Assembly: GCA_965201115.1 (NCBI GenBank) | Contig: OZ241745.1 | Location: 2,953,166 to 3,017,165 of the forward strand | Origin: Alphaproteobacteria bacterium | GTDB lineage: Bacteria; Pseudomonadota; Alphaproteobacteria; UBA7887 | Direction: 5' to 3' | DNA length: 64,000 bases | In this document: positions 1 to 49,885 of the stretch, one piece after another | Position numbering within the stretch: position 1 is the first letter of the stretch | Layout: the number at the start of each line of letters is the position of its first letter | Program-made: the position numbers and the translations under genes | Notes under the pieces: generated by a model | Told to the model about the DNA's origin: nothing | Database searches by the model: none | Seen by the model: the letters and a program-made list of their open reading frames with translations, nothing else

Positions 1-244
1 GGGGGCGCGCCGGCCGGGCGCGCCACGATACGTTTCCGCCGGAGCCTCGATGCTCCTCTCGATCTCCGATGCCGGCGCCGCGTTCCTGCCTAGCCATCGG
101 AATCGAGCCGTTTCTTCGATTTGCACCCTATCCGATTTCGGCTGTCGAGTCAAGTCGTTTCGTGCGTGCTTTTCACGGCTCGAGTCGCGAATCGAGCCGT
201 GTCGAAAACCGCCGGGGAGGGCGCGCCGCTCGCGGCTCTCCGTC

Positions 245-290
245 GACGCCGCACGGAAACGTGCGGGCGGGAACGCCCGCAGTACCGAGT
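245..290. repeat. Partial REP/MITE-like unit (inverted orientation) near the left edge
   Basis: cggaaacgtgcgggcgggaacgcccgcag resembles the reverse complement of the REP core. Confidence 0.3.
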
Positions 291-447
291 CGGGACATCC
301 GCGCGCCTCCACGGCGCCCGAAACGCCGAGCGAAAACCGCCGTGGGCCGCGGCGCGGAAGCGGAGCGTTCCGCAACGGTTGCGCCGGACCGCTCCCGCCG
401 GGGTGCAAGCGGGGGAGCGGCCCGGCCGTCGCGCGCGGCGCGAGCGC

Positions 448-786
448 TCAGATTTTGAAGCACCCCGCGCAGCTGATTATGGTCGAAAACGAACTGGCTT
501 GAACCGAGCCCGTTCCGCCCGAGACCGCGGTCAGCGATTCGTCCGCCAGCTCCGTATTCGGATCGGGCGGGAAGACGATGTGGATGACGTCTTCCGTGTT
601 CTCGGCCACGCGGGCCTCGGCGTCGGCGGGAATGGCGACGCCGAACTCCTGCAGCACGCCCCGCGCGCCGCCAGCCTCGATCCGCGCGCGCAACGCCTCG
701 TCGCCGCGATACCGTTCCGCCAGTGTCTCGAGGCTCCGGTAGCTGTCCAGCGCCCGCTCCACGCTTCCGCGCATTGCTCCGGTCAT
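448..786 (-). CDS. Nitrile-hydratase-leader-peptide (NHLP) family RiPP precursor: about 91-aa leader ending VSGG, then a 21-aa Cys/Ser/Thr-containing core TGSVQASSFSTIISCAGCFKI
   Basis: ORF 448..852(-) from internal Met23. The leader shows the NHLP signature (RALDSYRSLETLAERYRGDEALRARIEAG...VAENTEDVIHIVFPPDPNTELADESLTAVSGG) with a double-Gly cleavage motif. AGGGAG ribosome-binding site 9 nt upstream. Confidence 0.6.
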   Translation of the reverse strand: MTGAMRGSVERALDSYRSLETLAERYRGDEALRARIEAGGARGVLQEFGVAIPADAEARVAENTEDVIHIVFPPDPNTELADESLTAVSGGTGSVQASSFSTIISCAGCFKI

Positions 787-949
787 CGTTCTCGCTCCCT
801 TGCAAGCAGTCTTTTCGCTTCCCGTCATATCGCATTCGGGCCGGCGAGTCAAGCTGTATCGTACATTTTCCGCGCATCGCCGAATGGAATTGCACTACGC
901 GGGGCGCGCGCCGTCGACAAGGGCGCGGGCTTCGCGCTATCCTGGGCGC

Positions 950-17529: not shown

Positions 17530-18850
17530 GCTGCGTGTAGTCCACCGAGAAACGCAGCGCAGCGCCGCCGCCGCGCGCCCCGAACGCGCAACCCGCGCCG
17601 TGCGGGCGTGGCGGGCGCTGTCACGCGCGCTGCCCCTTGCCTGCCCGGCGCGGCGCCGGCGGCCTACGCCGCTTCCGCCGCGTCCGGCCAGCGGAAGGGC
17701 TCGCCGCTCGCCAGCATGCGATGCAGGATGACCGCCAGCCGCCGCGCCAAGGCCACGCACGCCTTCTTGAAACCGCTTCGCTTGCGCAACCGCCGCGCCC
17801 AGTCCTTGAGCGGATGACCGCGCTTGACCCGCGTCAGCAGGCAAGCCGCGCACTCGTACAGCAGCGACCGCACGCCGGGATCGCCGTGGCGCGATATGCG
17901 CCCCGTCCAGTCCATCTCCCCCGATTGACGCCGACGCGGCACAAGCCCCACATACGCGCCCACAGATCGCGAATCGGCAAACCGCGCCGCATCGCCCAAG
18001 TTCGCAACCAGCGCCACAGCCGTCATCGGCCCCACGGCCGGAGCCGTCATCGACAGCCGGCAGGCCTTGCTGGCCCGCGCCCGCGCCTCCACCTGCCTGG
18101 TGAGCGCCTTGAGCGAATGCAGCGTCTGCGCCAGCGAAACCAGCAACGGCTCCACCGCTTCCTGCAGCGGCGTATCCATGACCGCCTCGCGAACCCGCGC
18201 CGAAAACCGGCCCGAACCCTTCGAAAGCCGAATCCCCGCCGAACCCAGGATGCCCCGGACCGTGTTCTCCGCGTCGCGGCGCTGGCGCACCATAAGCCCC
18301 CGCGCGCGCAACAGCGCCTGCGTATTCGCGTCCCAAGCCCGCTTCACCGAAACCGGGGGGCAGAACTTCGTGCGCGCGATATCCGCCAGCAACGCCGCGT
18401 CCTTCGCATCCGTCTTGTTCGTCTGAAGGCGAAGCACCGCGTGAACGCGCCGAGCGTCCACCACATCCACGGCCTGCCCCAACGCCTCCATCTCGCGCGC
18501 CAGCCAGCCCGAATACGTCCCCGTCTCCATGACCACGCGCGCCGGCGACGGGCAGTGCTCGCGCACCGCCGCAAACAACGCCGCCGGATCCGTCGCAACC
18601 TTGCCCGCGACAACCGTCGCACCCGCATCGTTCTTGACGCAAAACGCCGTCTCTTCCTTCGACACGTCGAAACCGACATACTCCGCCATGGTCGCTCTCC
18701 CTGTTGGGTCCGTGAGTGGGGCGCACAACCCTGCGTGCGCAGCCCCGCATGATAGACCCGGGAGAGCGACCGACCGGAATTATCCCATGTCGGCGCCCCG
18801 CGCGACGTCGGCGATCCCTCGGGGGGCGCCTTCGTTCGGCGCCATGTGCT
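17530..18850 (-). mobile_element. IS110-family insertion sequence (ends approximate; family lacks clear inverted repeats)
   Basis: Transposase gene plus flanking leader and trailer. 9-bp-stem hairpin about 100 bp downstream of the transposase stop (about 17528-17570). Confidence 0.3.
17664..18689 (-). CDS. IS110 family transposase
   Basis: MAEYVGFDVSKEETAFCV... (DEDD N-terminus) and C-terminal GVGPMTAVALVANLGDAARFADSRSVGAYVGLVPRRRQSGE.... Confidence 0.85.
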   Translation of the reverse strand: MAEYVGFDVSKEETAFCVKNDAGATVVAGKVATDPAALFAAVREHCPSPARVVMETGTYSGWLAREMEALGQAVDVVDARRVHAVLRLQTNKTDAKDAALLADIARTKFCPPVSVKRAWDANTQALLRARGLMVRQRRDAENTVRGILGSAGIRLSKGSGRFSARVREAVMDTPLQEAVEPLLVSLAQTLHSLKALTRQVEARARASKACRLSMTAPAVGPMTAVALVANLGDAARFADSRSVGAYVGLVPRRRQSGEMDWTGRISRHGDPGVRSLLYECAACLLTRVKRGHPLKDWARRLRKRSGFKKACVALARRLAVILHRMLASGEPFRWPDAAEAA

Positions 18851-18853
18851 ATA

Positions 18854-19921
18854 ATGGCCGCCATGCGCGAGATACACGATGCCTCCTTCAAACTGTTTTT
18901 CGAGCATGAGCGGGCGGTCGCCGACCTGCTCGGGGGTTTCATGCGGCAGGCGATGGGCCCGGAGTTCGATGTCTCGCGCCTCGACCTCGCCAGCCTCGAA
19001 CCGGCGCCGGCGGAGTACGTGGACGAGGATCTGCGGCAGACGCGGGGCGACCGCGTGTGGCGGCTGCGCTACCGCGCCGCCGACGGCACGACCGGCTGGG
19101 TCTATCTGCTGGTCATGCTGGAGTTTCAGTCGCAGGTCGACCTGGACATGGCGGTGCGCGTGTATGCGTACACGGCTCAGTTGTATTCGCGGCTTCGCCG
19201 GGACGACCGGAAGAACCGGCGCGCGGGACCGCTTCCGCCGGTTTTGCCGATTGTCGTTTACAACGGTCGTGCGCGTTGGTCTGCGTCGCGGGAGGTTCGC
19301 GACGAGATAGCGCCTGCGGAGGCGGCGCTGGAGCGTTTTCAGCCCCGGCAGGGTTACCTGCTGCTCGATGTTCATCGTCTGCGGCCGGAGGATTTGCCGG
19401 CGGGCAACGTTGTGTCGGCGCGTTTTGCGCTTGAGCACGGCGATCCGGAGGCCGTGCCGGCGGTTGTCGCGGCGTTGCGTCGGTTGCTTTCGGGTCCGGA
19501 GCATGCGAGTTTGCGCCGTGCGTTCGGGGCGACGCTTCGACACATGATCGAGGCGAACCGGTTCGGGGCTTCGGACGGCGCGCTGGCTGCGCGTTTGAGG
19601 CGGGTCGGGGATTTGGAGGATTTGGGCGCGATGGAATCGTTGTTTGCGGAACGGCTCGACAGTTTGCTTGCCGAGCGCGAAGCGCGCGGCGTATCTCTTG
19701 GCGAGGCGCACGGTCTTGAGCGTGGCGCGGCGCGCGAGCGTGCGCTTCTGGCGCGGCAGGCGGGCCGCAAGTTCGGGGCGGAGGCGGCTTCGCGGCTGGC
19801 GGCTGCGGTGGCGGGCGTGGACGATCCGGACCGACTCGAGGAGGTCGGCGACGCGGTGATCGTGTGCGCGAGCGGCGACGCGCTGCTGGCGCGCGCCAAG
19901 GAGATCGCCCACCGCCGCTGA
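18854..19921 (+). CDS. Rpn family recombination-promoting nuclease / putative transposase (YhgA-like, PD-(D/E)xK)
   Basis: MAAMREIHDASFKLFFEHERAVADLLGGF...WVYLLVMLEFQSQVDLDMAVRVYAYTAQLY. TATAAT hexamer at 18848-18853. Confidence 0.7.
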   Translation: MAAMREIHDASFKLFFEHERAVADLLGGFMRQAMGPEFDVSRLDLASLEPAPAEYVDEDLRQTRGDRVWRLRYRAADGTTGWVYLLVMLEFQSQVDLDMAVRVYAYTAQLYSRLRRDDRKNRRAGPLPPVLPIVVYNGRARWSASREVRDEIAPAEAALERFQPRQGYLLLDVHRLRPEDLPAGNVVSARFALEHGDPEAVPAVVAALRRLLSGPEHASLRRAFGATLRHMIEANRFGASDGALAARLRRVGDLEDLGAMESLFAERLDSLLAEREARGVSLGEAHGLERGAARERALLARQAGRKFGAEAASRLAAAVAGVDDPDRLEEVGDAVIVCASGDALLARAKEIAHRR

Positions 19922-22810: not shown

Positions 22811-25800
22811 AGTCAATGGCGGCGGCGGCCTGGCGGCGACGGTCAAGGACGGCGGCACGGTTACGGGCGACATCCGCGTCGGCGGCAGCGGTTCGTTGAC
22901 GGCGATGGTCGAGGCCGGCGGCGCGGTGGAGGGGACGATACGCGACCCGCAGGCTTCGTTCACGGTTTCGGGCAGCGTCGGGCGCGTTCTCTATGCTTCG
23001 GGCGGAACGGTGACGGTGGCCGGGGGCGCGAAACTGACGGGCGTCTCCGGCACGGCCGCCGAGAGCACGGCGGGGGCGCTGACGGTCACGGTCCAAAACC
23101 GGGGCCGCGTCGAGGCCGACATCGAGTCCGGCGGGACGCTGATGGTTACCGTCAACGACGGCGGCGTGGTAACGGGGACGATAGAGGATCCGCAGGCTTC
23201 GTTCACGGTCGGGAGCGGGGCGCGCATCGGGCGCATTCTTTACACCGGCAGCAGCGGCGGGACGGTGACGGTGTCCGGCGGCGGGACGCTTACGGGCGTC
23301 GAGGGCGTGGCCGCCGAGAGCACGGACTCGGGGGGCGCGCTGACGGTCACGGTGAACGACAACGGCCGCGTCGAGGGCGACGTCAAGTCGGCCGGCACGC
23401 TGTCGGCGACCGTCGATGCCGGCGGCGTGGTTACGGGGACGATACACGACCCGCAGGCTTCGTTCACGGTTTCGGGCAGCGTCGGTCGCGTTCTCTATGC
23501 CTCGGGCGGAACGGTGACGGTGTCCGGCGGCGCGAAGCTGACGGGCGTCGAGGGCGTGGCCGCCGAGAGCACGGCCGGCGCGCTGACGGTTGCGGTGAAC
23601 GACAACGGCCGCGTGGAGGGCGATATCAAGTCGGGCGGCACGCTGTCGGCAACCGTCGATGCCGGCGGCGTGGTTACGGGAACGATACACAACCCGCAAG
23701 CTTCGTTCACGGTTTCGGGCAGCGTCGGTCGCGTTCTTTACGCCAGCGGCGGAACGGTGACGGTGTCCGGCGGCGCGAAGCTGACGGGCGTCGAGGGCGT
23801 GGCGGCGGAGAGCGCGGCGGGCGCACTGACGGTCACGGTGAACGACAACGGCCGCGTCGAAGGCGACGTCAAGTCGGCCGGCACACTGTCGGCGACGGTC
23901 AACGTCGGCGGCGTCGTGACGGGGACGATACACAACCCGCAAACGCCGTTCACGGTTTCGGGCAGCGTCGGGCGCGTTCTTTACGCCGGCGGCGGAGCGG
24001 TGACGGTATCCGCGGGCGGGACGCTGACGGGCGTCGAGGGCGTGGCCATCGAGAGCACAACCGGCGCGCTGACGGTCACGGTGAGCAACCGGGGCCGCGT
24101 CGAGGGCGGCATCGAATCGGGCGGGACGCTGACGGCGAACGTCATGGCCGGCGGCGTCGTGACCGGAACGCTCCGCAACCCGCAGAGTCCGCTCACGGTT
24201 TCGGGCAGTGTGGGGCGCATTCTCTATGCCCGCGCGAGCGGCGGGACGGTGACGGTCGCCGCCGGCGGCGCGGTAACGGGCGTCGAGGTCGATGGCGCAA
24301 CCGAGGCGATCCGCGGCAATGCGGGCAATCTCGACGTCACGGTGGCGGCGAGGGGCGCGGTCACGGGTCTCGTCGAGGGCCGCGGGCCGGGCAATCTGAA
24401 GGTTACGGTCGCCGGCTCGTTGGCGGGCGGCATTGCCGAGCGCGCCGCGGGCGATCTTGAGGTTTCGGTCGCCGGAACGGTTACGGGCGGCATTGTCGGC
24501 GCGGGCGCGGGCGAACACACGGTCACGGTGGCGTCCGGCGGCGCGGTTACGGGGACGGTACATTTGGCGACCGGCGCGGCGACCATCGCGGGCCGCGCGG
24601 CGCGCGTGCTTTACGACAACGGCGGCATGGCGACGGTCGCCGCGGGCGGCGAGATCGCGGGCGTCGATGTCGAGGGAACGATGGAGGCGATTCGCAACGA
24701 TGCGGGCAATCTCGAGGTCACGGTTGCGTCCGATGGGGAGGTTGCGGGGCGCATCGAGGATCGCGGCGCGGGCAATCTCGAGGTCGAGGTTTCCGGCGCG
24801 GTCGCGGGCGGCATCGTCGAACGCGAGGCGGGCAATCTGGACGTCACGGTGACGGCCAGCGGCGCGGTCACGGGCAACATCGAGGGCCGCGATGCGGGCA
24901 ATCTGAAGGCCGCGGTCTCCGGAAACGTAACCGGCGATATCGTCGAACGCGGGGCGGGCGATCTCGACGTCACGGTGTCGGCAACGGTCACGGGCGGCAT
25001 TGTCGGCGAGGGCGCGGGGGCGCACAAGGTGTCGGTGGAGTCCGCCGGCGCGGTAACAGGCACGGTGCGCCTGCCGGGGAACGCGGAGACGACGGTCGCG
25101 GGCACGGTGGGGCGCGTTCATTACGACAACGGAGGCGCGGTCACGGTCAACGCGAACGGCGAGATTGCGGGCCTCGAGATCGAGGGCGTCCGGGAGGCGG
25201 TCCGCGGCGACGCGGGGGATTTGGCGGTTACCGTTCACGGGACGGTAACGGGCAATATCGAGGCGCGCGGCGATGGCGACCTGACGGTGATGGTTTCGGA
25301 GACCGGGACGATTGCGGGGGAGATATTCGGTCGCGGCGGGGGCATGCATACGATCGAGATCGCGGACAAGGCGCGGGTTGTGGGCACGGTGCATAACCCG
25401 AAGCGGGGGACGACCATAAGCGGCGCGGTGGGCCGCGTTCTGTTCGACAACGGCGGCGCGCTGACGATTGCGGCGAGCGGTCGCGTCTCTGGCGTCGGCG
25501 GCGAGGCGATCCGCAGCGCGGCGGGCGACCTGGAGGTCGCGATTGCCGGCGAGGCGACCGGAAATGTTGAGAGCCGCGGCGGGGCGCTGGCGGCGACGGT
25601 AACCGGCACGGTCGAGGGCGACATACTGGGTCTCGGCGCCGGCGAGCACACGGTGGCGGTTCGCGGCGGCGGGATGGTTACGGGCACGGTGCGCCTGGCG
25701 GCGGGCGAGGCGGATGTGGAGCACGGCGCGGCCGGGCGCGTGCTGCTGGACCGGGGCGGGTCCGTGAAGGTCGGGGCGCGGGGCGAAATCAAGGGCCTCG

Positions 25801-28310
25801 AGGTCGAGGGCGTTCGGGAAGCGATCCGTTCCGACGCGGGAGACCTGACGGTGGCGATTGCGTCCGGCGGCGCGGTCAAGGGCCGCATCGAGGGGCGCGG
25901 CGCGGGCAACATGACCGTGAACGCGGGCGGCGCGGTGACGGGCGCCATCCTTGGCAAGGGCGCCGGTAGGCACGAGATCGCGGTCGCCTCCGGCGGCTCG
26001 GTTACGGGCGACATCGTCGATATGGAGGCCGGCGGCCTGGTCGCGACGGTCGCGGGTTCGGTTACGGGCGCAATTGAGGAGCGCGGCGCGGGGGACCTGA
26101 CGGTAACGGTTGCGGGCGCGGTTTCCGGGGATATCCGCGGCCTGGGCGCCGGCGTGCATCGGGTTACGGTTGCGTCCGGCGGTTCGGTTGCGGGCGCCAT
26201 CCGCGGCGCGGGCGCGGGTTCGCACGCAGCGACGGTCGCGGGCCGCGCGGCGCGCGTGCTCTACGAGAACGGCGGTTCGGTCACGGTCGCATCCGGCGGC
26301 GCGGTGTTGGGCGTCGGGACTTCGGACGGCGGTCGCGAGGCGATCCGCGGCGCGGCGGGCGACCTGACGGTGGACGTAGCGGCGATGGGGACCGTGGCGG
26401 GCGATATCCGCGGCGCGGGCGATGGCGATCTGAAGGTGGATGTGAGCGGCAAGGTCGAGGGCGGGATATTCGGCCTTGGCGGCGGCGAGCACGACGTTCA
26501 TGTGAAATCCGGCGGCTCGGTCGAAGGTCTCATCCACCTGGCCGCCAGCACGGTGACGGTCGAAGGGGCCGCCCGGAGCGTGCTGTTCGACCGCGGCGGC
26601 ACGGTGTCGGTCGGCGCCGGGGGGCGCCTGTCGAACCTCGACGGGCGTGCGGCGGTGCGCAGCGAAGCCGGCGATCTGATGGCGATGGTGAACGGCAATG
26701 TCACAGGCAATATCGAGGGCATGGGCGCCGGAGCGCTGATGGTCACGGTCGCCAACGAACTGACCGGCGGCGTCATCGGCGGCGACGGCGGCATGCACCG
26801 GCTGACGGTGGCGGCCGGCGGGACGTTCAAGGGGCACGTCGAGGGCCTGGAGGCCATTCGCATCGCCGGGCGCGCGGAAGCGGCGCGCCCGCTGACGGTT
26901 TCCGATGGCGGCGAGGTGACGGTCGCGGCTGGCGGCGTGCTCATGGGCGCGGAGGACGCGCAGGGCCGCCGCGTGGCGGTCTCCGTTGCAACGGGCGCGC
27001 TGAACATGACGGTCGAAGGGGAAGGCATGGTGCAGGGCGCCGTGGAGGCGCGCGACGCCGCCGCCGCCTCGACCGTGACGGTCGATGCCGGCGGCGCCAT
27101 CGACGGCCGCGTCGCGCTGGCGGGCGCCGGCAGCGAAGTCACGGTCGACGGCGCGGCGCAGAGCGTCGATGTGCCCCGGGGCGCGGTGACGGTGGGCGAG
27201 AACGGGCGCATCGCGGAGCCCGTCATCGGCGCCGAGACGGTAACGATACGTGCGGCGGCGGGCGAAACCGACGAGGAGGCGGCGCTGCGCCTGGGCGGCG
27301 GCCGCATCGACGCCGCCGGCGCGACGATTACGCTCAAGCGCCAGGGCCGCGTCGATTCGCGTCTCCGGATAACCCGCGACGGTCGCATCGAGGTGGGGCC
27401 GGCGCCGCGCCACCGCGTGTACGAAGCTCTGCCTTCGGCTCTGCTGGCGCTGAATGCACTGCCCGCCCACGGCGACCGTTTCGCCGCGGCGGGCGCGCCG
27501 CGCGGCGCGTTCGCGCGCCTCGACGCCGCCGGCGGCGACCGCCATCCGGCGTCGTCTGTCGCGCAGGCGCATCACGATTACCGCCGCTTCGGTTTCGAGG
27601 CGGGGATAGAGGGCGCGGCGGGCGAGCGCGGCGTGTTCGCGATCTCGGTTCATCATGTGCGCGGCCGCGCGGACGTGGACACGGACGCGGACACCGAGGC
27701 GGGCGGCGGCCGTGTCGAGATAACCGGCACGGGCGCGCGCATATCGGGCGCATGGCTGCCCGCGGAGAACGTCTATGTGAGCGCTCAGGCCGCGGCGACG
27801 CTGTACGAGACCGACCTCGATTCGGACGTGGCGCTCGAGGGCGCCCTTGCGCGGGACTTGTCGGGCCGCGGCTACGCCGCCGGCGTGGAGATCGGGCGGC
27901 GCCTCGACCTGGGCCGCGTAACGCTGACGCCGCGCGCGGGCGCCGATTGGTCGATGGTGGAGATGTCGTCGTTCACGGACTCCGTGAACGAGCGCGTGTC
28001 GCTGGACGCGGGCCGGCGCATAACGGCCCGCGCCGGCGTGCGCGCCGAGTCCGCCGCCCTCCCCGGCGGCGCCGGCGCCATGTTCGCAACGCTGGACCTT
28101 GAGCGCGAACTGTCCGGCGCAATGGAAACCACGGCGGCGGACCGCCCCTTCGAAGCCGAAGCGGAAGCGACATGGGCCCGCCTCGGCCTCGGCGCCGCCC
28201 ACGAATGGGCCGACGGCCGCATAGCCCTCCGCGCCAACGCCAACTACGCCGCCGCCCGCCACGGCAACCGAGACTTCAGCGGCAGCGCCGCACTCACCGT
28301 GCGCTTCTGA
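22809..28310 (+). CDS. Giant autotransporter adhesin, C-terminal segment: about 1,500 aa of tandem Gly/Val/Thr-rich passenger repeats plus autotransporter beta-barrel translocator (ends ...AALTVRF)
   Basis: Frame 0 is open from 22794 (first ATG at 22896). Repeats are of the type GGxVTGTIxDPQASFTVSGSVGRVLYASGGTVTVSGGAKLTGVEGVAAESTAGALTVTVNDNGRVEGD. C-terminal beta domain has a terminal aromatic residue. Confidence 0.7.
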   Translation, partial: SVNGGGGLAATVKDGGTVTGDIRVGGSGSLTAMVEAGGAVEGTIRDPQASFTVSGSVGRVLYASGGTVTVAGGAKLTGVSGTAAESTAGALTVTVQNRGRVEADIESGGTLMVTVNDGGVVTGTIEDPQASFTVGSGARIGRILYTGSSGGTVTVSGGGTLTGVEGVAAESTDSGGALTVTVNDNGRVEGDVKSAGTLSATVDAGGVVTGTIHDPQASFTVSGSVGRVLYASGGTVTVSGGAKLTGVEGVAAESTAGALTVAVNDNGRVEGDIKSGGTLSATVDAGGVVTGTIHNPQASFTVSGSVGRVLYASGGTVTVSGGAKLTGVEGVAAESAAGALTVTVNDNGRVEGDVKSAGTLSATVNVGGVVTGTIHNPQTPFTVSGSVGRVLYAGGGAVTVSAGGTLTGVEGVAIESTTGALTVTVSNRGRVEGGIESGGTLTANVMAGGVVTGTLRNPQSPLTVSGSVGRILYARASGGTVTVAAGGAVTGVEVDGATEAIRGNAGNLDVTVAARGAVTGLVEGRGPGNLKVTVAGSLAGGIAERAAGDLEVSVAGTVTGGIVGAGAGEHTVTVASGGAVTGTVHLATGAATIAGRAARVLYDNGGMATVAAGGEIAGVDVEGTMEAIRNDAGNLEVTVASDGEVAGRIEDRGAGNLEVEVSGAVAGGIVEREAGNLDVTVTASGAVTGNIEGRDAGNLKAAVSGNVTGDIVERGAGDLDVTVSATVTGGIVGEGAGAHKVSVESAGAVTGTVRLPGNAETTVAGTVGRVHYDNGGAVTVNANGEIAGLEIEGVREAVRGDAGDLAVTVHGTVTGNIEARGDGDLTVMVSETGTIAGEIFGRGGGMHTIEIADKARVVGTVHNPKRGTTISGAVGRVLFDNGGALTIAASGRVSGVGGEAIRSAAGDLEVAIAGEATGNVESRGGALAATVTGTVEGDILGLGAGEHTVAVRGGGMVTGTVRLAAGEADVEHGAAGRVLLDRGGSVKVGARGEIKGLEVEGVREAIRSDAGDLTVAIASGGAVKGRIEGRGAGNMTVNAGGAVTGAILGKGAGRHEIAVASGGSVTGDIVDMEAGGLVATVAGSVTGAIEERGAGDLTVTVAGAVSGDIRGLGAGVHRVTVASGGSVAGAIRGAGAGSHAATVAGRAARVLYENGGSVTVASGGAVLGVGTSDGGREAIRGAAGDLTVDVAAMGTVAGDIRGAGDGDLKVDVSGKVEGGIFGLGGGEHDVHVKSGGSVEGLIHLAASTVTVEGAARSVLFDRGGTVSVGAGGRLSNLDGRAAVRSEAGDLMAMVNGNVTGNIEGMGAGALMVTVANELTGGVIGGDGGMHRLTVAAGGTFKGHVEGLEAIRIAGRAEAARPLTVSDGGEVTVAAGGVLMGAEDAQGRRVAVSVATGALNMTVEGEGMVQGAVEARDAAAASTVTVDAGGAIDGRVALAGAGSEVTVDGAAQSVDVPRGAVTVGENGRIAEPVIGAETVTIRAAAGETDEEAALRLGGGRIDAAGATITLKRQGRVDSRLRITRDGRIEVGPAPRHRVYEALPSALLALNALPAHGDRFAAAGAPRGAFARLDAAGGDRHPASSVAQAHHDYRRFGFEAGIEGAAGERGVFAISVHHVRGRADVDTDADTEAGGGRVEITGTGARISGAWLPAENVYVSAQAAATLYETDLDSDVALEGALARDLSGRGYAAGVEIGRRLDLGRVTLTPRAGADWSMVEMSSFTDSVNERVSLDAGRRITARAGVRAESAALPGGAGAMFATLDLERELSGAMETTAADRPFEAEAEATWARLGLGAAHEWADGRIALRANANYAAARHGNRDFSGSAALTVRF

Positions 28311-28502: not shown

Positions 28503-31139
28503 TCAGTTCAGCCGGAGGCGCACCCCGACGAACGCGGCCAGTGGCTGCCCGGGCGAGATGAAGCGCGGGTCCAGAACCGCGTTATCTTGATGTTTCAGTT
28601 CGTGGATGGGGACCTCGACTTCCAGTTCGCCGTCCTCCATTTCGGCGGCTTCGCCGAAAATGCCGAAGGTGCGGTATTTCCGGTCGAACAGGTTCTCGAT
28701 CCTTCCGAACGCCTCGATCCAGTCGGTTATGCGGTAACTCGCGTCGAGATTCACGACCGTGTAGCCATCGGTCGGCGAGGCCAGATTGGCTTCGTCGCCG
28801 CGGTAATACACGCCGGAGCGATAGATCATGCTCGGGCCGATGCGCAGGCCGTCGAACGGTTCGGTATCGACCCCCAGATTGAGGCTGTGCTCGGGCACGC
28901 CGGGGATCTTGTCGCCGGGCCGCACCTCGATGCCACCCCTGTCCGCCCGCGGGTGGTTTTCGGCGAAGACGGTGAAGGACGACTGGAAGGTGGCGTCGAC
29001 ATAGCCGTAGTTGACGCGCCATTTCATCGGGCCGGCGTCGCCGCGCAGCTTGACCTCCACGCCTTGGCGGCGGGTTTCCGACACGTTTTGGAAGAACCCG
29101 CTCGAAATGCCGCCGCCCGTTTCCGGCCTCTTGGTCAGGAATACGATGTCGTCGCTGTTCGTGGCGCGGAAGGCGCTCACGGTCCAGTCGATCGAGGTCA
29201 GGCCGCCCATGCCGCCGCGGCGGATGGAGCCGCGCGCGCCGGCTTCGAAGGTGCGCGAGATCACCTGGTCGAGCGGCGGATCGGCGACGAACGCATTGGG
29301 CAGGTTGCACGGGTCGTTTTCGTCGGCGCAGCTGAGCTCCGCGGGCGAGGGCGCGCGGTTGCTCTGGCGGTATCCGCCGAACAGCGTCACGTCGGAGTCG
29401 GGCATCGACCACGCGGCGCCGATGGCGAGGTTGATGGCGGTGTAGTCGTGGCTGCCCGTCAACCGGTCCTGCGGCTCGCCGAGAAACACCGAGCGGTCCT
29501 TCAGGACAATCTTCGCGATATTGGCCGCCACCGACCCCGTGACCGACAGGCCGCGGCCGAGGTCCAGCGTGTCGGACGCATAGACGCGGTAGTACTTGTT
29601 CTCGGCGACGAGATTAACCGGCGCGGTGTCGACCCGGCACAGTTCCTCGCCGCCGCGCTCGACGCAGACGCCTTCGTCTTCGCCGTTGTCGGCCTCGCCG
29701 TTTCCGTTGTCGTCATCGTCGTCGTCGTCGTCGTCTTCGGGGCGGGCGGCGACGTACAGGCCACGCATGCCGTCGGAGCGGGGGATGACGGCGCGGTCGC
29801 CGAAGCGCAGTTCGCCGAGCTCCTGTGCGTTCCGGAATTCCGTCTCGCCCATATCGGCCCCGACGCCGAAAACGAACTGGTTGTCCATGCCGCCGAGCGG
29901 CGTCTCGATCAGCGCCTGCACGCTGGCGCCGTAGGCGGTGGATTCGGTCTCGCTGGTGTTCAGCGCGCCATAGACGTTCATGCCGCCGGTCAGGGGAATC
30001 GCGGGGATCGGGTTTCCGTTCCGGTCGTAGAAGACGAACTCTTCCTCGTCTTCTTCTTCGTCGTCATCGTCGTCCTCGCCGCCGTTCGCGGCGCGATCGT
30101 TCCCGCCGCCGTTCTCATCGTCGTCTTCTTCGGCCTCGCCGCAGATGTAGCCTTCGTTGTCGTCGCCCTCGCAGGCGCCGGCATCGACCTCATCGCCGTT
30201 GAGTGTGTCGCGGTTCAAGCGGCGGTAATATGCGTTGGCTTGGATGGCGATGTTTTCGGCGATCCACGCCTCGCCGCTGGCCGAGATCAGGACGTTGCGA
30301 TTTTGCGTCCGGTCCGGATTGGTGAAGATCGACTCGGGCCGGATGTCGTAGAGCTCGATCGGCGCCAGGCCGTTGCCGATCAGGTCGGTCGAGGCCCAGG
30401 ACAGGTTTACGCGCATGGAGCCGTTTTCGCCGTCGGCGCCGCCGGCGGCGAAGAAGCGGTCGAGTTGCGACGGCGACGCGTCGCGCCAGCCGTCCTCGCG
30501 GTCGTGCTGGTAGGCGGCGAACAGGTTGAAGTCGCCGCTGTCCATGCCCGCGCGCGCGGTTGTGCGCAGGCGGCCGAACGAGCCGCCCGACTGCGACAGT
30601 TCCGCCCCCTGGAAGGTGGTTCCGTCGTGCGTGAGCAGTACGAGCGCGCCGCCCAGCGCGTTAAAGCCGAAGGCCGGATTGGCGTTGCCGAGCTCGATGC
30701 CGCGAATCGCCATTTCCGGGAACAGGTCGGACTGCACCACATCGCCGAACGGGTCGTTGATGCGCACGCCGTTCTGAAACGCGGCGATGCCGACGCTCTC
30801 GCCCAGCAGCGGGCCGGCGACGAAGCCGCGGTAGTTGAAGTTGCGCTGATACGGGTTGTTCTGCAAATCGACCGCGGAGGCGCCGGCGAACGAGCGCTCG
30901 ACGAAATCGTAGAGCGTGAGACTGCCCTCGGTCTCGAACGCGCCCGGCTCCGCCGCCTGCACGTTGTACGGAACCTTGTCGATGGGCAGGCCCGCGCCGG
31001 CGAGCGGGGTAACGCCGATCACGTCGATATCGGGCAGTTCGGCCGGCCCGGCGCCGGCCTCCTGCGCGCGCGCCTGGTGCGTGGCCAGCGCGCAGAACGC
31101 GCACGCGGCCGCGAGCCGCATCCATGAACGTATCGCCAT
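28503..31139 (-). CDS. TonB-dependent outer-membrane receptor with unusual poly-acidic (Asp/Glu-rich) loop insertions
   Basis: Signal peptide MAIRSWMRLAAACAFCALATHQARAQE. Plug domain (DIDVIGVTPL...FNYRGF) and 22-strand barrel. Inserts EDDDENGGGNDRAANGGEDDDDDEEEDEEE and EDDDDDDDDDNGNGEADNGEDEG. Confidence 0.85.
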   Translation of the reverse strand: MAIRSWMRLAAACAFCALATHQARAQEAGAGPAELPDIDVIGVTPLAGAGLPIDKVPYNVQAAEPGAFETEGSLTLYDFVERSFAGASAVDLQNNPYQRNFNYRGFVAGPLLGESVGIAAFQNGVRINDPFGDVVQSDLFPEMAIRGIELGNANPAFGFNALGGALVLLTHDGTTFQGAELSQSGGSFGRLRTTARAGMDSGDFNLFAAYQHDREDGWRDASPSQLDRFFAAGGADGENGSMRVNLSWASTDLIGNGLAPIELYDIRPESIFTNPDRTQNRNVLISASGEAWIAENIAIQANAYYRRLNRDTLNGDEVDAGACEGDDNEGYICGEAEEDDDENGGGNDRAANGGEDDDDDEEEDEEEFVFYDRNGNPIPAIPLTGGMNVYGALNTSETESTAYGASVQALIETPLGGMDNQFVFGVGADMGETEFRNAQELGELRFGDRAVIPRSDGMRGLYVAARPEDDDDDDDDDNGNGEADNGEDEGVCVERGGEELCRVDTAPVNLVAENKYYRVYASDTLDLGRGLSVTGSVAANIAKIVLKDRSVFLGEPQDRLTGSHDYTAINLAIGAAWSMPDSDVTLFGGYRQSNRAPSPAELSCADENDPCNLPNAFVADPPLDQVISRTFEAGARGSIRRGGMGGLTSIDWTVSAFRATNSDDIVFLTKRPETGGGISSGFFQNVSETRRQGVEVKLRGDAGPMKWRVNYGYVDATFQSSFTVFAENHPRADRGGIEVRPGDKIPGVPEHSLNLGVDTEPFDGLRIGPSMIYRSGVYYRGDEANLASPTDGYTVVNLDASYRITDWIEAFGRIENLFDRKYRTFGIFGEAAEMEDGELEVEVPIHELKHQDNAVLDPRFISPGQPLAAFVGVRLRLN

Positions 31140-31306
31140 AAGTCGTCTCCTCGAGTTTGCGCCCGTTGCGGCGCGCCGGACAATACAGGACTGTATAACC
31201 CGCGTCAAAGTGCTTTTTCGTAAATGCCCGCCGGTGGTTTCGTTGACGAAAACGTGGGCATGAACGCGGTATTACTGGAGGAAAGCGGTTATTTACATGC
31301 GATTTG

Positions 31307-46030: not shown

Positions 46031-46276
46031 GTCGGCGGGAAAGCGCGAACGGCGCGTCCCTCACGGCGGCAGCCGTGGCAGTCGAGACGCGCAGGCGGGG
46101 CGCCCGCATCGCGATGCCGCGAAAGCCGCGCAGGAAACCCCTCGCAGCGTGTATTATCCGGGTTGCGCGGGCTGGCCGGAACGGGTATTAACCGTTGCCG
46201 CCTGCGGCCCGCCGGCGGCGCGGGCGCCGTTTATGCAGGACAACCGCGTTCGTCGGTAATCCGGGAAGAATACGGT

Positions 46277-47134
46277 ATGCGGGATATGAAAGAGCTCGAA
46301 ATCGACGGCGGCCTACTGCGCGATCGGTCGCCTCTGACGAGCTTTCTCGCCACCTTGGACGAGCTGGAAGCGCCTTGCAGCGTCGTGGCCTGCGGTCTGC
46401 TGTGCGCGGGCAAGAGCACGTTGCTCAACGCGCTTGCCGGACGGACAGGCGAGCCGTACTTCGCGACCGGCGCAGGCCGGACGACCCATGCGTGCAAGAG
46501 CCTTGACGACCGCGCCGGCTTCCGGTGGATCGACACTCCCGGCCTCGATGTGAGCGGCGAGGACGACGCGGAAGCCGAAAAAGCGATTCGCGCGGCCGAC
46601 GTGCTCTTGTTCGTGCATCACCCCGGGACCGGCGAACTGCACGAGGCCGAGGCGGATTTCCTGCAGGCCGTCGCGACGGGCGCGGACACGCGCCACGGCC
46701 TTGCCGAGCGCATGTGCGTGGCGCTGACCCACAAGGAGTCGATAAGCGCCGACGAACTCGGCCGGCTCAGGGACGCCGTTCGCCGGCAGGTCGCATCGGC
46801 GACAGGCGCCGACCCGGCGCTGTTTCCGGTGGCTTCCACCGTTTATCTCGGGGCAACGCGCAAGTTCCAGCCGAAATTGGTCGAATTCAGCGGCGTGCCC
46901 GCGCTTCGGACCCGTCTGATGCATGGCGCCGAAGGCTCCCGCGCCCGCCGGTGGAAGCGCGTCGCCAATCTTGAGGAAGAACTGCACCGGCGGATCGACG
47001 CGGAAATCGCGCATCGGGCCGGGCGGCGGCGCACGCTCGAACGCGAGATTGCCAATGTCGAGAAGGCGTTGCACGAAGAGTTCGCATCGTTTCTGGAGCA
47101 GCTGGACCAACGGCTTGCCGGCCTCGACGCGTAG
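46277..47134 (+). CDS. Small P-loop GTPase (dynamin/GIMAP-like G-domain; GxxxxGKS, DTPG)
   Basis: CGLLCAGKSTLLNALAG, WIDTPGLD, LTHKES. 285 aa. First gene of a lower-GC island. Confidence 0.6.
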   Translation: MRDMKELEIDGGLLRDRSPLTSFLATLDELEAPCSVVACGLLCAGKSTLLNALAGRTGEPYFATGAGRTTHACKSLDDRAGFRWIDTPGLDVSGEDDAEAEKAIRAADVLLFVHHPGTGELHEAEADFLQAVATGADTRHGLAERMCVALTHKESISADELGRLRDAVRRQVASATGADPALFPVASTVYLGATRKFQPKLVEFSGVPALRTRLMHGAEGSRARRWKRVANLEEELHRRIDAEIAHRAGRRRTLEREIANVEKALHEEFASFLEQLDQRLAGLDA

Positions 47135-47163
47135 CCGGAAGCGGAACAACGGAGAACGGAATC

Positions 47164-47565
47164 GTGTTTCTTGCCCCCCTCACCGACGCCCAGAAGCGGG
47201 CTTTCATGGCGCTCGCGGCCATGGTCGTCGATAGCGACGAACGGGTTACCCGACAAGAGCGCGAACTCATGGCCAGTCTGAGCGCCGAGATGGGCATGCC
47301 GGACGCGCCGGAAGGCATGGACCTCGCCGCCGCCGCGGCCGCGTTCGCCGACTGGCCCGGCAAGGTGCGCGCCATGCTCGAACTGATCGGCATCGCCCGC
47401 GCCGATTGCGATTTCGACAAGCGGGAAAGCGCGCTCATCCGCCGGATCGCCGAGGCGTTCGGGATCGCCCCCGGCGAGCTCGAAGTGATGGACGACTGGG
47501 TCTTCCGGCAGCTCGCCCTGGTGCGGGAAGCGAACTACCTGATAACCGAATTGCGGGAGGATTGA
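47164..47565 (+). CDS. TerB-like domain protein
   Basis: 133 aa. ALAAMVVDSDERVTRQERELMASL... and IARADCDFDKRESALIRRIAE resemble the TerB fold. GTG start with GGAGA ribosome-binding site. Confidence 0.5.
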   Translation: MFLAPLTDAQKRAFMALAAMVVDSDERVTRQERELMASLSAEMGMPDAPEGMDLAAAAAAFADWPGKVRAMLELIGIARADCDFDKRESALIRRIAEAFGIAPGELEVMDDWVFRQLALVREANYLITELRED

Positions 47566-47567
47566 CC

Positions 47568-48059
47568 ATGCCCCTGCCATTGTTCTGGATCCTGGGCGCG
47601 GCCGGCGTAGCAGCCGCTGCCGCCGCCACGGCTTGGGCGGCCTCGGATAACGACGAAGCTGTTACCGAGCCCGACGAGGCCGGCGAGTTGCGCGAACGGG
47701 AGGCGGAGCGTGATCGCGAGAAGCGGCGCGAGCGCGCCGAGCGCTGGAAAGAACGGGGATTGCACGACATGGCGGGCTGCCATTCCGCCTCCGGACGCAG
47801 CCCGTCCGGGCTGACATGCGCGGAGTACTGGCGGAGCGAGGCCGCGCCCGGCGCCGGGCAAGCGGACCGCGTCGAGAAAGCCCTGGACATGTTCCTGCCC
47901 AAGGACGGCCCGAGCGATGCGAAAAACGAGGCCGCCGCCCTGCTGCGGGAAGAAGACGATCTGAGGGCGATGAAGACGGCCGTGGCGGCGATGCGCGCGC
48001 GGGCGCAGGAACGTGAGGCCCAATCGCAATCGGAGCCGCCGCAGCGGAGCGAAGCATGA
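47568..48059 (+). CDS. N-terminally membrane-anchored charged coiled-coil protein
   Basis: MPLPLFWILGAAGVAAAAAATAWAA, then an E/R-rich helix. GGGAGG ribosome-binding site. Stop overlaps the next start. Confidence 0.45.
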   Translation: MPLPLFWILGAAGVAAAAAATAWAASDNDEAVTEPDEAGELREREAERDREKRRERAERWKERGLHDMAGCHSASGRSPSGLTCAEYWRSEAAPGAGQADRVEKALDMFLPKDGPSDAKNEAAALLREEDDLRAMKTAVAAMRARAQEREAQSQSEPPQRSEA

Positions 48060-49885
48060 GTTCGGCAGGCGACACGGGTGCGGTCGGACGCCCCGAATTC
48101 CTCGAGGCCATGAGCCGGCTTCAGGGCCGGTTCGACGAGGCGGGCGGGCAGGTCAAGTCGCAAGAGGCCGAATTCGACCGCGATTTGGACGATGCGATCG
48201 CGCGTATCGAGCGGGAGCCGCTCTCGCGGGAGGGTGGAGCGCTTCCGCCTCCCGTCGAGAAAGCCCTGCATGAAGCGAGAGAAATCGTCGATGCGGCCGT
48301 CATCGGCTGGCGGGAGCGTGTCGGGAAATACGACCGCAACACCGAATTCCGGCGCGACCACGGGGATTCGCTGCTGGTCTATGTCTATGGCTTGGTCAAG
48401 GCGGGCAAGAGCGCCCTCGGCAATTTCGTCGCCCATGGCTGCGAGCGCCCCGATGACGCGTTTGTCGCGACGCTGTCCGCCAGCGGGAGCGGCCCCGAGT
48501 TCTTCGTGCGCTCGGTTGCCTCGGGGGATCCGGACGCTATCGACAAGGCGAACGGGCGGCTCGCCCGGGCGCGACGGTTCCATACCGATGTCGAGGAGGC
48601 GACGGACCGCATCCAGGGGTTCAAGATGCCGGGGCTGACCTGGATCGACTCCCCGGGACTCGGGTCGGTCACGGAGGCAAACGGCAAACTCGCACGGGAG
48701 TATGTCGAAAGCGCCGACCTCGTTGTTGTCGCAATGAACAGCGCACAACCCGGCCGCAGGACCGAGCGCGACGAAGCGAGACGCCTGATGCGCTTGGGAA
48801 AACCGATGATGGTCTTGCTCACGCGCGCCGACAACATCGACATGGACGTGGACGAAAACGGCCGGATTGTCAAGACATTGGTCATGAAGTCCGCCGATGA
48901 TCGGCGGGATATGAAAGAATGGGTCGAATCGCAATTGAAGGAAGCGGTCCGGATCGAAGGTCGGAACGCGCCCCGAATCCCGCAAATAACAACGATATCG
49001 GTGCGTTATGCCGCGGAGCATCCGGATATCGATGGAGCGCGCGAGAGCGGCCTGTCGGAACTGTTCGGCCTGTTGAGCGAGGTCGCCGAAAGCGAAGGCG
49101 TGACCATGAAGCGGGAGGCCCCGGCCCGTATGTTTCGCGCCTTCGTCCGCGATATCGCCGGGGACGAGCAAAACTTCGGCATGGGCAACATCGTCGGGCG
49201 TCTGGACCGGGTCCGGCGGTCGATAGCCCGAAGCCGCGAAGGACACGAGGAACAGGGGCGGCAGGCGGGAGACCGAGCCGCACGGGATATCGAGGCGGCG
49301 ATCAATGAGGAAGTCGAGAGCCGTCGCAAGACTCTCGACAATGCAGGCCTCCACGAGGCAGTAAACAGACAGGCTCGCAAGATACTCGAACGGCGGGTGT
49401 CCGAGGCCGCGGCGGAGATGGTCAAGGATATCGACATGGAGATGCTATCTTTGGCAGCGATGGGGCAAGAACACGCGCCGGCGTTGAAGGTCGTCGCTAG
49501 CGTAGTGATAAAGCCGGATCGCGAGCGCCGCGAGCACCTTGCCTTCGGTGCCCCCGTTGGCTTGACCGGGACAATAGCAGACGTCGTGATAGGATTTTTG
49601 TTCGGCGGTCTGGTCGGGGCCGTCGCGGGAGCCGCTGCGGAAGCGCCCAGCGGCGCCACGACAAACGGCTCCGCCGCCGGTTCCAGAGTCGAGTACATCG
49701 ACAACGCCGCCGAGGTTGCGAAAGAACTGGCGATCATTAAGAGCAACGAAGTGCGGAAAGCAGCCTCGGAGGCGTTCGCGCGTTTGAACGATGAGGTTCT
49801 GAAACCTCTGGAAACGCGCATCGACAATATCATCGACGGCCTTGAGGAATTCCGAAGCAAATGGCAGAAGGAGATCGCGCGATGA
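48056..49885 (+). CDS. Bacterial dynamin-like protein 1 (GTPase, stalk, membrane paddle)
   Basis: 609 aa. G1 GLVKAGKSALGN, G3 WIDSPGLG, G4 LLTRAD. Hydrophobic paddle VIGFLFGGLVGAVAGAAA near the C-terminus. Confidence 0.75.
   Translation: MSSAGDTGAVGRPEFLEAMSRLQGRFDEAGGQVKSQEAEFDRDLDDAIARIEREPLSREGGALPPPVEKALHEAREIVDAAVIGWRERVGKYDRNTEFRRDHGDSLLVYVYGLVKAGKSALGNFVAHGCERPDDAFVATLSASGSGPEFFVRSVASGDPDAIDKANGRLARARRFHTDVEEATDRIQGFKMPGLTWIDSPGLGSVTEANGKLAREYVESADLVVVAMNSAQPGRRTERDEARRLMRLGKPMMVLLTRADNIDMDVDENGRIVKTLVMKSADDRRDMKEWVESQLKEAVRIEGRNAPRIPQITTISVRYAAEHPDIDGARESGLSELFGLLSEVAESEGVTMKREAPARMFRAFVRDIAGDEQNFGMGNIVGRLDRVRRSIARSREGHEEQGRQAGDRAARDIEAAINEEVESRRKTLDNAGLHEAVNRQARKILERRVSEAAAEMVKDIDMEMLSLAAMGQEHAPALKVVASVVIKPDRERREHLAFGAPVGLTGTIADVVIGFLFGGLVGAVAGAAAEAPSGATTNGSAAGSRVEYIDNAAEVAKELAIIKSNEVRKAASEAFARLNDEVLKPLETRIDNIIDGLEEFRSKWQKEIAR

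Follow-up and report, generated by a model that had tools for sequence, protein, structure and literature searches.

We analysed a stretch of 64,000 nt from an alphaproteobacterial chromosome (contig OZ241745.1; the whole stretch is called the window below). Close to its left edge, the minus strand carries a gene for a protein of 112 amino acids. A first-pass annotation had described this gene as the precursor of a ribosomally produced, post-translationally modified peptide (RiPP) with a nitrile hydratase leader peptide (NHLP), i.e. a long leader that ends in a double-glycine motif and a short core rich in Cys, Ser, and Thr. Translation of positions 448 to 786 confirmed the minus-strand open reading frame (ORF) with the leader and core that had been quoted. 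The protein consists of the leader MTGAMRGSVERALDSYRSLETLAERYRGDEALRARIEAGGARGVLQEFGVAIPADAEARVAENTEDVIHIVFPPDPNTELADESLTAVSGG and the core TGSVQASSFSTIISCAGCFKI; the leader string of the annotation, VAENTEDVIHIVFPPDPNTELADESLTAVSGG, represents residues 60-91. The ribosome-binding site AGGGAG had also been recognized correctly. The divergent gene xseA starts at position 884, and a promoter region of 97 nt is common to both genes. Table 1 lists the features of the locus.

Table 1. Features at the left edge of the 64-kb window
Feature	Position	Strand	Basis or remark
Precursor peptide gene, 112 aa	448-786, including the stop codon at 448-450	-	Translation, 9 metagenome contigs, dN/dS
NHLP-type leader, residues 1-91, with Pro-rich FPPDPN, LxxxxL (L80 to L85), and V-S-G-G at its end	514-786	-	
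Core, residues 92-112, TGSVQASSFSTIISCAGCFKI	451-513	-	Hypervariable region following the GG
Shine-Dalgarno-like AGGGAG	795-800	-	8 nt 5′ of the ATG; direct sequence reading
GC-rich hairpin, about 17 paired bases, one mismatch	384-425	-	Starts 23 nt past the stop codon
Small second hairpin followed by GTTTTCGCTC, terminator-like	338-354	-	Consensus scan, weak: 1 site versus 0.9 expected in shuffled sequences
Non-coding spacer toward the NosR-like gene	1-447		Outside the precursor transcription unit; window aligned against L001, L002, and L020

The identical 112-aa product was predicted by metagenome gene callers on nine independent contigs; the DNA differences within this set are synonymous by necessity. 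A comparison with the 97%-identical orthologue P0001 revealed nine synonymous and three non-synonymous changes, i.e. a ratio of non-synonymous to synonymous substitution rates (dN/dS) of 0.11. Orthologues with 80-97% identity have a nearly constant core but a leader that drifts at its N-terminus. The substitution pattern indicates that the gene is conserved and under purifying selection. An Rfam scan of positions 1-1000 yielded no meaningful match.

The NHLP leader was recognized in several independent comparisons. The NCBIfam model TIGR03793, for which the first-pass annotation had proposed a search, matches residues 41-91 significantly (E = 2.6e-11; model positions 27-77 of 77), with a score of 43.2 bits that is below the curated NCBI cut-off of 50.9 bits. 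Further matches were obtained with TIGR01323 (E = 2.1e-5) and with Pfam NHase_alpha (26.3 bits, E = 5.6e-6, at a gathering threshold of 27.2). With E = 1.3e-7, 8tb1, a chimera with the NHLP leader of MprE7, is the best sequence match in the PDB; the aligned region extends from the second helix through LSDEDLGAVTGG, the counterpart of which is LADESLTAVSGG. All 13 aligned relatives match TIGR03793, and a profile built from them retrieved 8tb1 with an E value of 1e-15, 9cjx, by its deposited description a natural product of the NHLP leader peptide family, with 3.2e-7, and nitrile hydratase alpha structures with values down to 4e-19. Twelve residues are invariant across the 13 relatives (R35, G49, P53, R59, H69, P73, P76, L80, D82, V88, G90, and G91). 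The terminal G90-G91 is preceded by hydrophobic residues at −4 (V88), −7 (L85), and −12 (L80); experiments on proteusin leaders and on double-glycine proteases have demonstrated the importance of such features, i.e. of the Pro-rich stretch, LxxxxL, and the hydrophobic character of these three positions (PMC10858898, PMC12537861). An AlphaFold2 model contains helices at residues 4-28, 30-47, and 82-88, at low confidence (mean predicted local distance difference test score 64.7, predicted template modelling score 0.43), and a Foldseek search of the PDB with this low-confidence model gave no significant match.

A profile search retrieved at least 491 relatives with lengths of 96-153 aa, a lower bound for the family; a scan of JGI metagenomes retrieved none. 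All the leaders follow the pattern H-x-V-x-P-P-D-P-N..L.D..L..V-(S/A)-G-G. The cores, by comparison, are hypervariable in sequence as well as in length (5-71 aa, median 34), and their pooled composition is dominated by Ser (24.5%), Ala (17%), Gly (15%), and Thr (11%), with 4.6% Cys.

In several genomes, relatives are found beside putative maturation enzymes. In a genome of 4.14 Mb (L029-L031) and in L032 and L033, arrays of three to six precursor genes are located directly 5′ of the genes for three enzymes, i.e. a fused leader-binding/YcaO protein of 783-790 aa (TIGR03882 plus TIGR03604), a SagB-type dehydrogenase (TIGR03605), and a DUF4135 protein of 848-900 aa, whose match to LanM is limited to the dehydratase part. 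In L040 and L045, precursor arrays lie beside YcaO, SagB, DUF4135/LanM-like, and PoyD-like radical S-adenosylmethionine (SAM) genes. C39-peptidase ABC exporter (PCAT) genes are present in L029-L031 and in L040, and L040 also encodes an outer-membrane factor. The window gene is real and belongs to the NHLP leader family, and its relatives are physically clustered with this enzyme set. The publications on nostatin A and on the dehydrazoles describe the same set.

Three further observations concern these loci. Proteins of 84-93 aa that resemble NHLP leaders but lack Gly-Gly and a core are encoded just before YcaO (L029 9609-9863; L040 9690-9971). A small protein with a Zn_ribbon_IS1595 domain is encoded directly beside precursor arrays of unrelated genomes (L029 6658-7212; L010 96-563; L042 8125-8643) and may have a conserved accessory or regulatory function in the precursor clusters. 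Some cores deviate from the common type in being rich in Trp, Tyr, and Arg (e.g. RHGVWDEYYRQYGWQYGGHWRDSWLGW) or in having a CxxC...C arrangement (NRYCADCWTPGPLQGASGCI), as found at L028 9992-10735, L026 8627-9001, and L016 3314-3619, which suggests that other chemistries may operate behind the same leader.

The core of the window precursor contains seven Ser/Thr and two Cys among its 21 residues (S/T/C 9/21), including the pairs SS, ST, and SC as well as GC, and can be parsed as TGSVQA-SSF-STI-I-SCA-GCF-KI. Nostatin A of Nostoc sp. is made from the core AASCQTTASSACTTPSCLSSASTASSNSCS, and its product consists of triplets of dehydroalanine (Dha) or dehydrobutyrine (Dhb), an azole, and a third residue, the “Dha-azole-X” rule (PMC11583998). 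In dehydrazoles, dehydration affects the Ser in front of an azole (PMC10676384). By analogy, we infer that the window core fits the same triplet logic. The C-terminal CFKI was considered as a CaaX-like prenylation box, but was rejected, the Cys being replaced by Ser in P0004.

No maturation genes were expected in the window by the first-pass annotation, and none were found: tblastn searches with YcaO, SagB, LanM-like, PoyD-like, PCAT, and ABC queries yielded no match in the window, in L001, or in the sister-strain contig L020. The same was true for APH, OEP, and Zn-ribbon queries, and tblastn did not reveal a second precursor copy in the window. The annotation had placed the enzymes beyond coordinate 1 or elsewhere. 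The first of these options does not hold for the next approximately 10 kb, which in the orthologous contigs L001, L002, and L020 contain the NosR-like gene, folC, accD, trpA, trpB, trpF, pyrF, an HU-type gene, and sppA. On the right side, the precursor is followed in the window by xseA and genes for an M23 peptidase, a lipid A acyltransferase, and PhaR, and then by further housekeeping, surface, and mobile-element genes. The Pfam matches of the ten largest ORFs of the window (autotransporter, TonB receptor, UvrC, Cys/Met pyridoxal-phosphate enzyme, dynamin-like GTPases, enoyl-CoA hydratase, epimerase, and transposase) do not include a maturation enzyme.

The second option is supported by the genomic distribution of further precursors. 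The proposed leftward extension uncovered no tailoring genes within about 10 kb; three further paralogues, P0309, P0318, and P0329, are encoded on the same chromosome of 3,674,140 bp. Copies of these three with at least 90% identity form a tandem array beside tkt-gap-pgk in L010. The 28.7-kb contig L042, which stems from the same sample as L020, contains the same array at a distance of 4.6 kb from a divergent operon encoding YcaO (784 aa), a PoyD-like protein (496 aa), and SagB, together with two further precursors; the three enzyme genes are located at the end of the contig. The sample that yielded L045 contains the identical window precursor as well (L002). L045 combines a precursor with YcaO (97% identical to that of L042), a PoyD-like radical SAM protein (TIGR04517, 282 bits), SagB, and an 847-aa LanM-like protein. 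The latter matches only positions 77-702 of the 932 positions of TIGR03897 and, in Pfam, DUF4135 alone without LANC_like. The maturation enzymes thus appear to be encoded at a separate locus of the same chromosome, beside the three paralogous precursors. Five cluster-linked leaders share 42-55% identity with the window leader and 41-64% with each other; as a candidate substrate, the window precursor is on a par with them.

We consider it probable that the window gene is a stand-alone orphan precursor of a dehydrazole/nostatin-type proteusin, which consists of a leader (residues 1-91) and a 21-residue core that becomes the product, and which is matured in trans. The class can thus be specified as a dehydrazole/nostatin-type proteusin with azoles and dehydroalanines, not a lanthipeptide. 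The first-pass annotation had left open whether the core belonged to a lanthipeptide or to a thiazole/oxazole-modified peptide; only the latter part, extended to dehydro amino acids, is retained, as the LanM-like enzyme lacks a canonical zinc cyclase. In the proposed pathway, the remote fused leader-binding/YcaO cyclodehydratase would bind the leader and convert Cys, Ser, and Thr residues of the core to azolines, which the SagB-type flavoprotein would oxidize to azoles. The LanM-like dehydratase would then turn the Ser in front of an azole into dehydroalanine, a PoyD-like radical SAM enzyme may epimerize a residue, and a putative protease would remove the leader after Gly-Gly. The predicted product is approximately T-G-S-V-Q-A-Dha-Oxa-F-Dha-mOxa-I-I-Dha-Tza-A-G-Tza-F-K-I (Oxa, oxazole; mOxa, methyloxazole; Tza, thiazole). 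The calculated monoisotopic mass is 2106.013 for the unmodified core, 2025.908 with four azoles (predicted at S8, T11, C15, and C18), and 1971.876 with three additional Dha residues (S7, S10, and S14; [M+2H]2+ 986.945). That the enzymes are present in this very genome, that they accept this peptide, and that they modify the listed residues is inferred.

For comparison, known systems were considered. One of the closest is nostatin A, with the enzymes NstD (YcaO), NstE (oxidase), NstF (PoyD-like), and NstG (LanM-like); homologous clusters have been noted in proteobacteria (PMC11583998). Its precursor NstC also has an NHLP leader and a Ser/Thr/Cys-rich core that can be read as [Ser/Thr]-[Ser/Thr/Cys]-X triplets, and the YcaO, azoline oxidase, PoyD-like, and LanM-like genes of its biosynthetic gene cluster recur beside relatives of the window gene and at the sister-strain locus. 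In contrast, the window core has 21 instead of 30 residues and Ile-Ser-Cys instead of Pro-Ser-Cys, the window gene is unclustered, and a second radical SAM protein similar to NstA was not seen at the loci analysed here; the likeness to the NstC leader is one of family, not of aligned sequences. The dehydrazole carnazolamide is derived from CcaA with the proteins CcaB, CcaC, CcaD, CcaM, CcaH, and CcaF; such clusters are widespread in Proteobacteria and sometimes contain several precursors, and a class-III-type cyclase domain defines the LanMbC enzymes of the class (PMC10676384). A nitrile hydratase-like leader, a core rich in Ser, Thr, and Cys, YcaO with a dehydrogenase, a radical SAM epimerase, and a DUF4135 dehydratase that acts on Ser before an azole are common to both systems. 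However, the window gene is an orphan at a remote site, and neither an S-methyltransferase nor a CcaF-type protease was seen.

Other systems share single traits. The srp proteusins of sponge microbiomes (SrpE) have an NHLP leader with LxxxxL and YcaO-dependent azoline formation (PMC10858898, bioRxiv 10.1101/2023.06.09.544420), but their precursors of about 84 aa have a conserved LCCCW core, which TGSVQASSFSTIISCAGCFKI lacks, and they involve a Trp brominase; no halogenase was found at any locus examined. The metagenome sources may be similar, as the assembly labels PANK22-1 and NGUY21-1 suggest a sponge origin for the present sequences. The MprE precursors of Methylovulum psychrotolerans provide the best match of solved structure, the 8tb1 leader, but the identity is about 40% over 63 aligned residues, the cores are unlike, and the cyclodehydratase of the Mpr precursors is encoded in the same cluster as they are. 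The prochlorosins (ProcA/ProcM) resemble the present case in their genomic organization, with many scattered precursors that have a conserved long leader with a double-glycine end and hypervariable cores and are far from one enzyme set. They differ in having a Nif11 leader and lanthionine rings and in occurring in picocyanobacteria, as opposed to NHLP leaders, azoles plus dehydroalanines, and Alphaproteobacteria.

Several observations weigh against the assignment to this class and against maturation in trans. Within the window and about 10 kb of its left flank, the precursor is not clustered with YcaO, an azoline dehydrogenase, or a DUF4135 dehydratase; its membership in the dehydrazole/nostatin class therefore rests on processing in trans. 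The presence of the enzymes on the chromosome of the window is deduced from linkage in a sister strain, and no YcaO of this chromosome occurs among the best 120 of 1502 matches and the members of 20 clusters, the P0164 cluster being unlisted. No leader protease or exporter was seen in the lineage of the window, and no enzyme was found within 10 kb of orphan precursors in related metagenome-assembled genomes (MAGs; L026-L028 and L034-L037). The core has Ile-Ser-Cys in place of the mid-core Pro-Ser-Cys that is invariant among nostatin homologues (PMC11583998). Of 175 distinct sequences of our family, 103 have PS[CTS] at mid-core and 19 have [IVL]IS[CT], and the short “ASS..IIS[CT]” subtype was encountered at orphan loci only. 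Short cores as such also occur beside enzymes, e.g. AVIPCAFCAGCRGG in L040. The TIGR03793 score below the cut-off is no ground for exclusion, because the L045 precursor that adjoins YcaO scores only 25.3 bits; for this clade, the curated threshold is a conservative one. The first-pass annotation had regarded an absence of tailoring genes within about 20 kb as refuting the prediction. Formally, this is the situation found here, but we judge it not decisive, because processing of dispersed precursors in trans is known and there is direct evidence for the remote cluster.

Several alternative explanations were considered. A chance ORF would be conceivable in a genome with 70.7% G+C, which contains many long spurious overlapping ORFs, several of them across the precursor region, but this explanation is already refuted by the significant matches to hidden Markov models and PDB entries, the hundreds of homologues, and the excess of synonymous substitutions. 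The gene could instead be a decaying or functionless duplicate, i.e. a leftover of a cluster-linked precursor that remains unprocessed or is expressed as an unmodified small protein. Its position between housekeeping genes, with xseA to one side and the NosR-like gene and folC to the other, the lack of enzymes nearby, and the short core without the conserved Pro are compatible with such a relic. Yet the dN/dS value, the intact start codon, ribosome-binding site, and GG motif, and the nearly unchanged core of the 80-97% orthologues despite their drifting leader N-termini argue for function, and the same core subtype is retained as tandem copies in a second lineage; we regard a relic as rather unlikely.

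A class II lanthipeptide similar to the prochlorosins, with a cyclase-containing LanM that forms thioether rings from Ser/Thr to Cys15 and Cys18, is less probable still. The Ser/Thr residues and the two Cys of the core would allow it, the LanM enzymes OspM and DprM are documented to act on NHLP leaders (PMC12537861), and the prochlorosins are the paradigm of dispersed precursors served by a single promiscuous enzyme (PMC10783134). However, the only LanM-like protein found in the lineage has no LANC_like match in Pfam and thus no canonical zinc cyclase, and its gene shares an operon with YcaO and SagB. Moreover, Cys is replaced by Ser or Thr in the close relatives P0004 and P0006-P0008, which suits azoles but not thioether rings. 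The peptide might also be a functional partner of the downstream NosR-like flavo/iron-sulfur membrane protein, e.g. a redox or metal-handling peptide that uses CxxC: in each of the orthologous contigs (L001, L002, and L020), the NosR-like gene follows on the same strand, 755-962 nt downstream, and C-A-G-C is present near the end of the core. The intervening spacer is non-coding, with strong hairpins right past the precursor stop codon and large indels, no NosR or Fer4_5 protein is encoded next to the precursors at the other loci examined (L010-L045), and the second Cys is lost in P0004. We consider this partnership highly improbable and rejected the link as coincidental synteny.

The NosR-like gene (L001 11095-13341) starts about 309 nt past window coordinate 1 and encodes 748-753 aa in L001, L002, and L020. 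The 748-aa protein of L001 is a membrane protein with CX3CP motifs and two ferredoxin-type clusters; its score with the NosR equivalog model NF046105, 511 bits, is below the cut-off of 1000 bits. Neither nosZ nor other nos genes are located near it, and folC comes next.

The first-pass annotation had mentioned a nearby repetitive extragenic palindromic (REP) hairpin. A strong hairpin is indeed present at 384-425: the RNA fold of positions 330-460 of the minus strand has an energy of −72.6 kcal/mol (z = −2.24), and the hairpin is conserved in L001, L002, and L020. The identification as a REP element is not supported, because no further copy was found in the window with up to three mismatches allowed, and a lone sibling is located in the same intergenic spacer, past the left window edge. 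The hairpin is probably a terminator or an RNA-stabilizing stem-loop. In the alignment of the spacer from the window, L001, L002, and L020, the indels are not multiples of three. L020 contains, at about 1780-2080, approximately 207 nt of additional GC-rich palindromic DNA that is missing from the window and L001 and resembles a small repeat element that was inserted there; the gene of 189 aa predicted across this insertion is probably spurious. In addition, a 12-nt half-site, ACGGCTCGA(T/G)TC, occurs in three copies (100-111, 175-186, and 189-200 of the window), two of which form a near-perfect palindrome at 174-201. The half-sites are conserved in L001 and L020, are situated several hundred nt 5′ of the NosR-like gene, and may be an operator.

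Further to the right, the window contains two adjacent transposase-like ORFs (17664-19921), one of which matches Transposase_31 (YhgA-like), while the other is transposase-like by its N-terminal sequence alone. A 1804-aa autotransporter (22896-28310), a TonB-dependent receptor (28503-31208), and three consecutive genes for dynamin-family/MMR_HSR1 GTPases of 323, 609, and 533 aa (46163-51462) were also noted.

The scattered distribution of orphan precursors extends beyond the genome of the window. In related MAGs (OZ251461.1 with 3.39 Mb, a contig of 3.37 Mb, and OZ251464.1), precursors occur as singles, pairs, and arrays of up to five, and the orphans are found among rpoD, mrp antiporter, methylmalonyl-CoA mutase-like, nifU, and other unrelated housekeeping genes. 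By analogy, this scatter resembles the arrangement of the prochlorosins. We tentatively propose, without yet calling it probable, that these uncultured Alphaproteobacteria maintain a dispersed library of dehydrazole precursors with one conserved NHLP leader and hypervariable cores, and that one set of YcaO, SagB, LanM-like, and PoyD-like enzymes would process all of them in trans. The window gene would represent a short-core, proline-less subtype that is confined to orphan loci.

As a further member of a published class, the precursor gene itself is of modest interest; the main interest lies in the question of the dispersed library and in the unusual short, proline-less core. Nostatin A is a potent cytostatic peptide (PMC11583998). 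New cores of the nostatin class are therefore of pharmacological interest. The V-ATPase is reportedly the target of nostatin A, according to a 2026 preprint. Genome mining that is centred on clusters would miss the window gene, because the distance to the enzymes is at least 10 kb in one direction and exceeds 63 kb in the other, and at such orphan loci cluster-centred tools undercount the substrates of the dehydrazole pathway. If the dispersed library exists, it would be a second and chemically different case of the combinatorial RiPP strategy of the prochlorosin type, and the principle of one enzyme set with many scattered substrates would extend from lanthipeptides to azole/dehydroalanine peptides.

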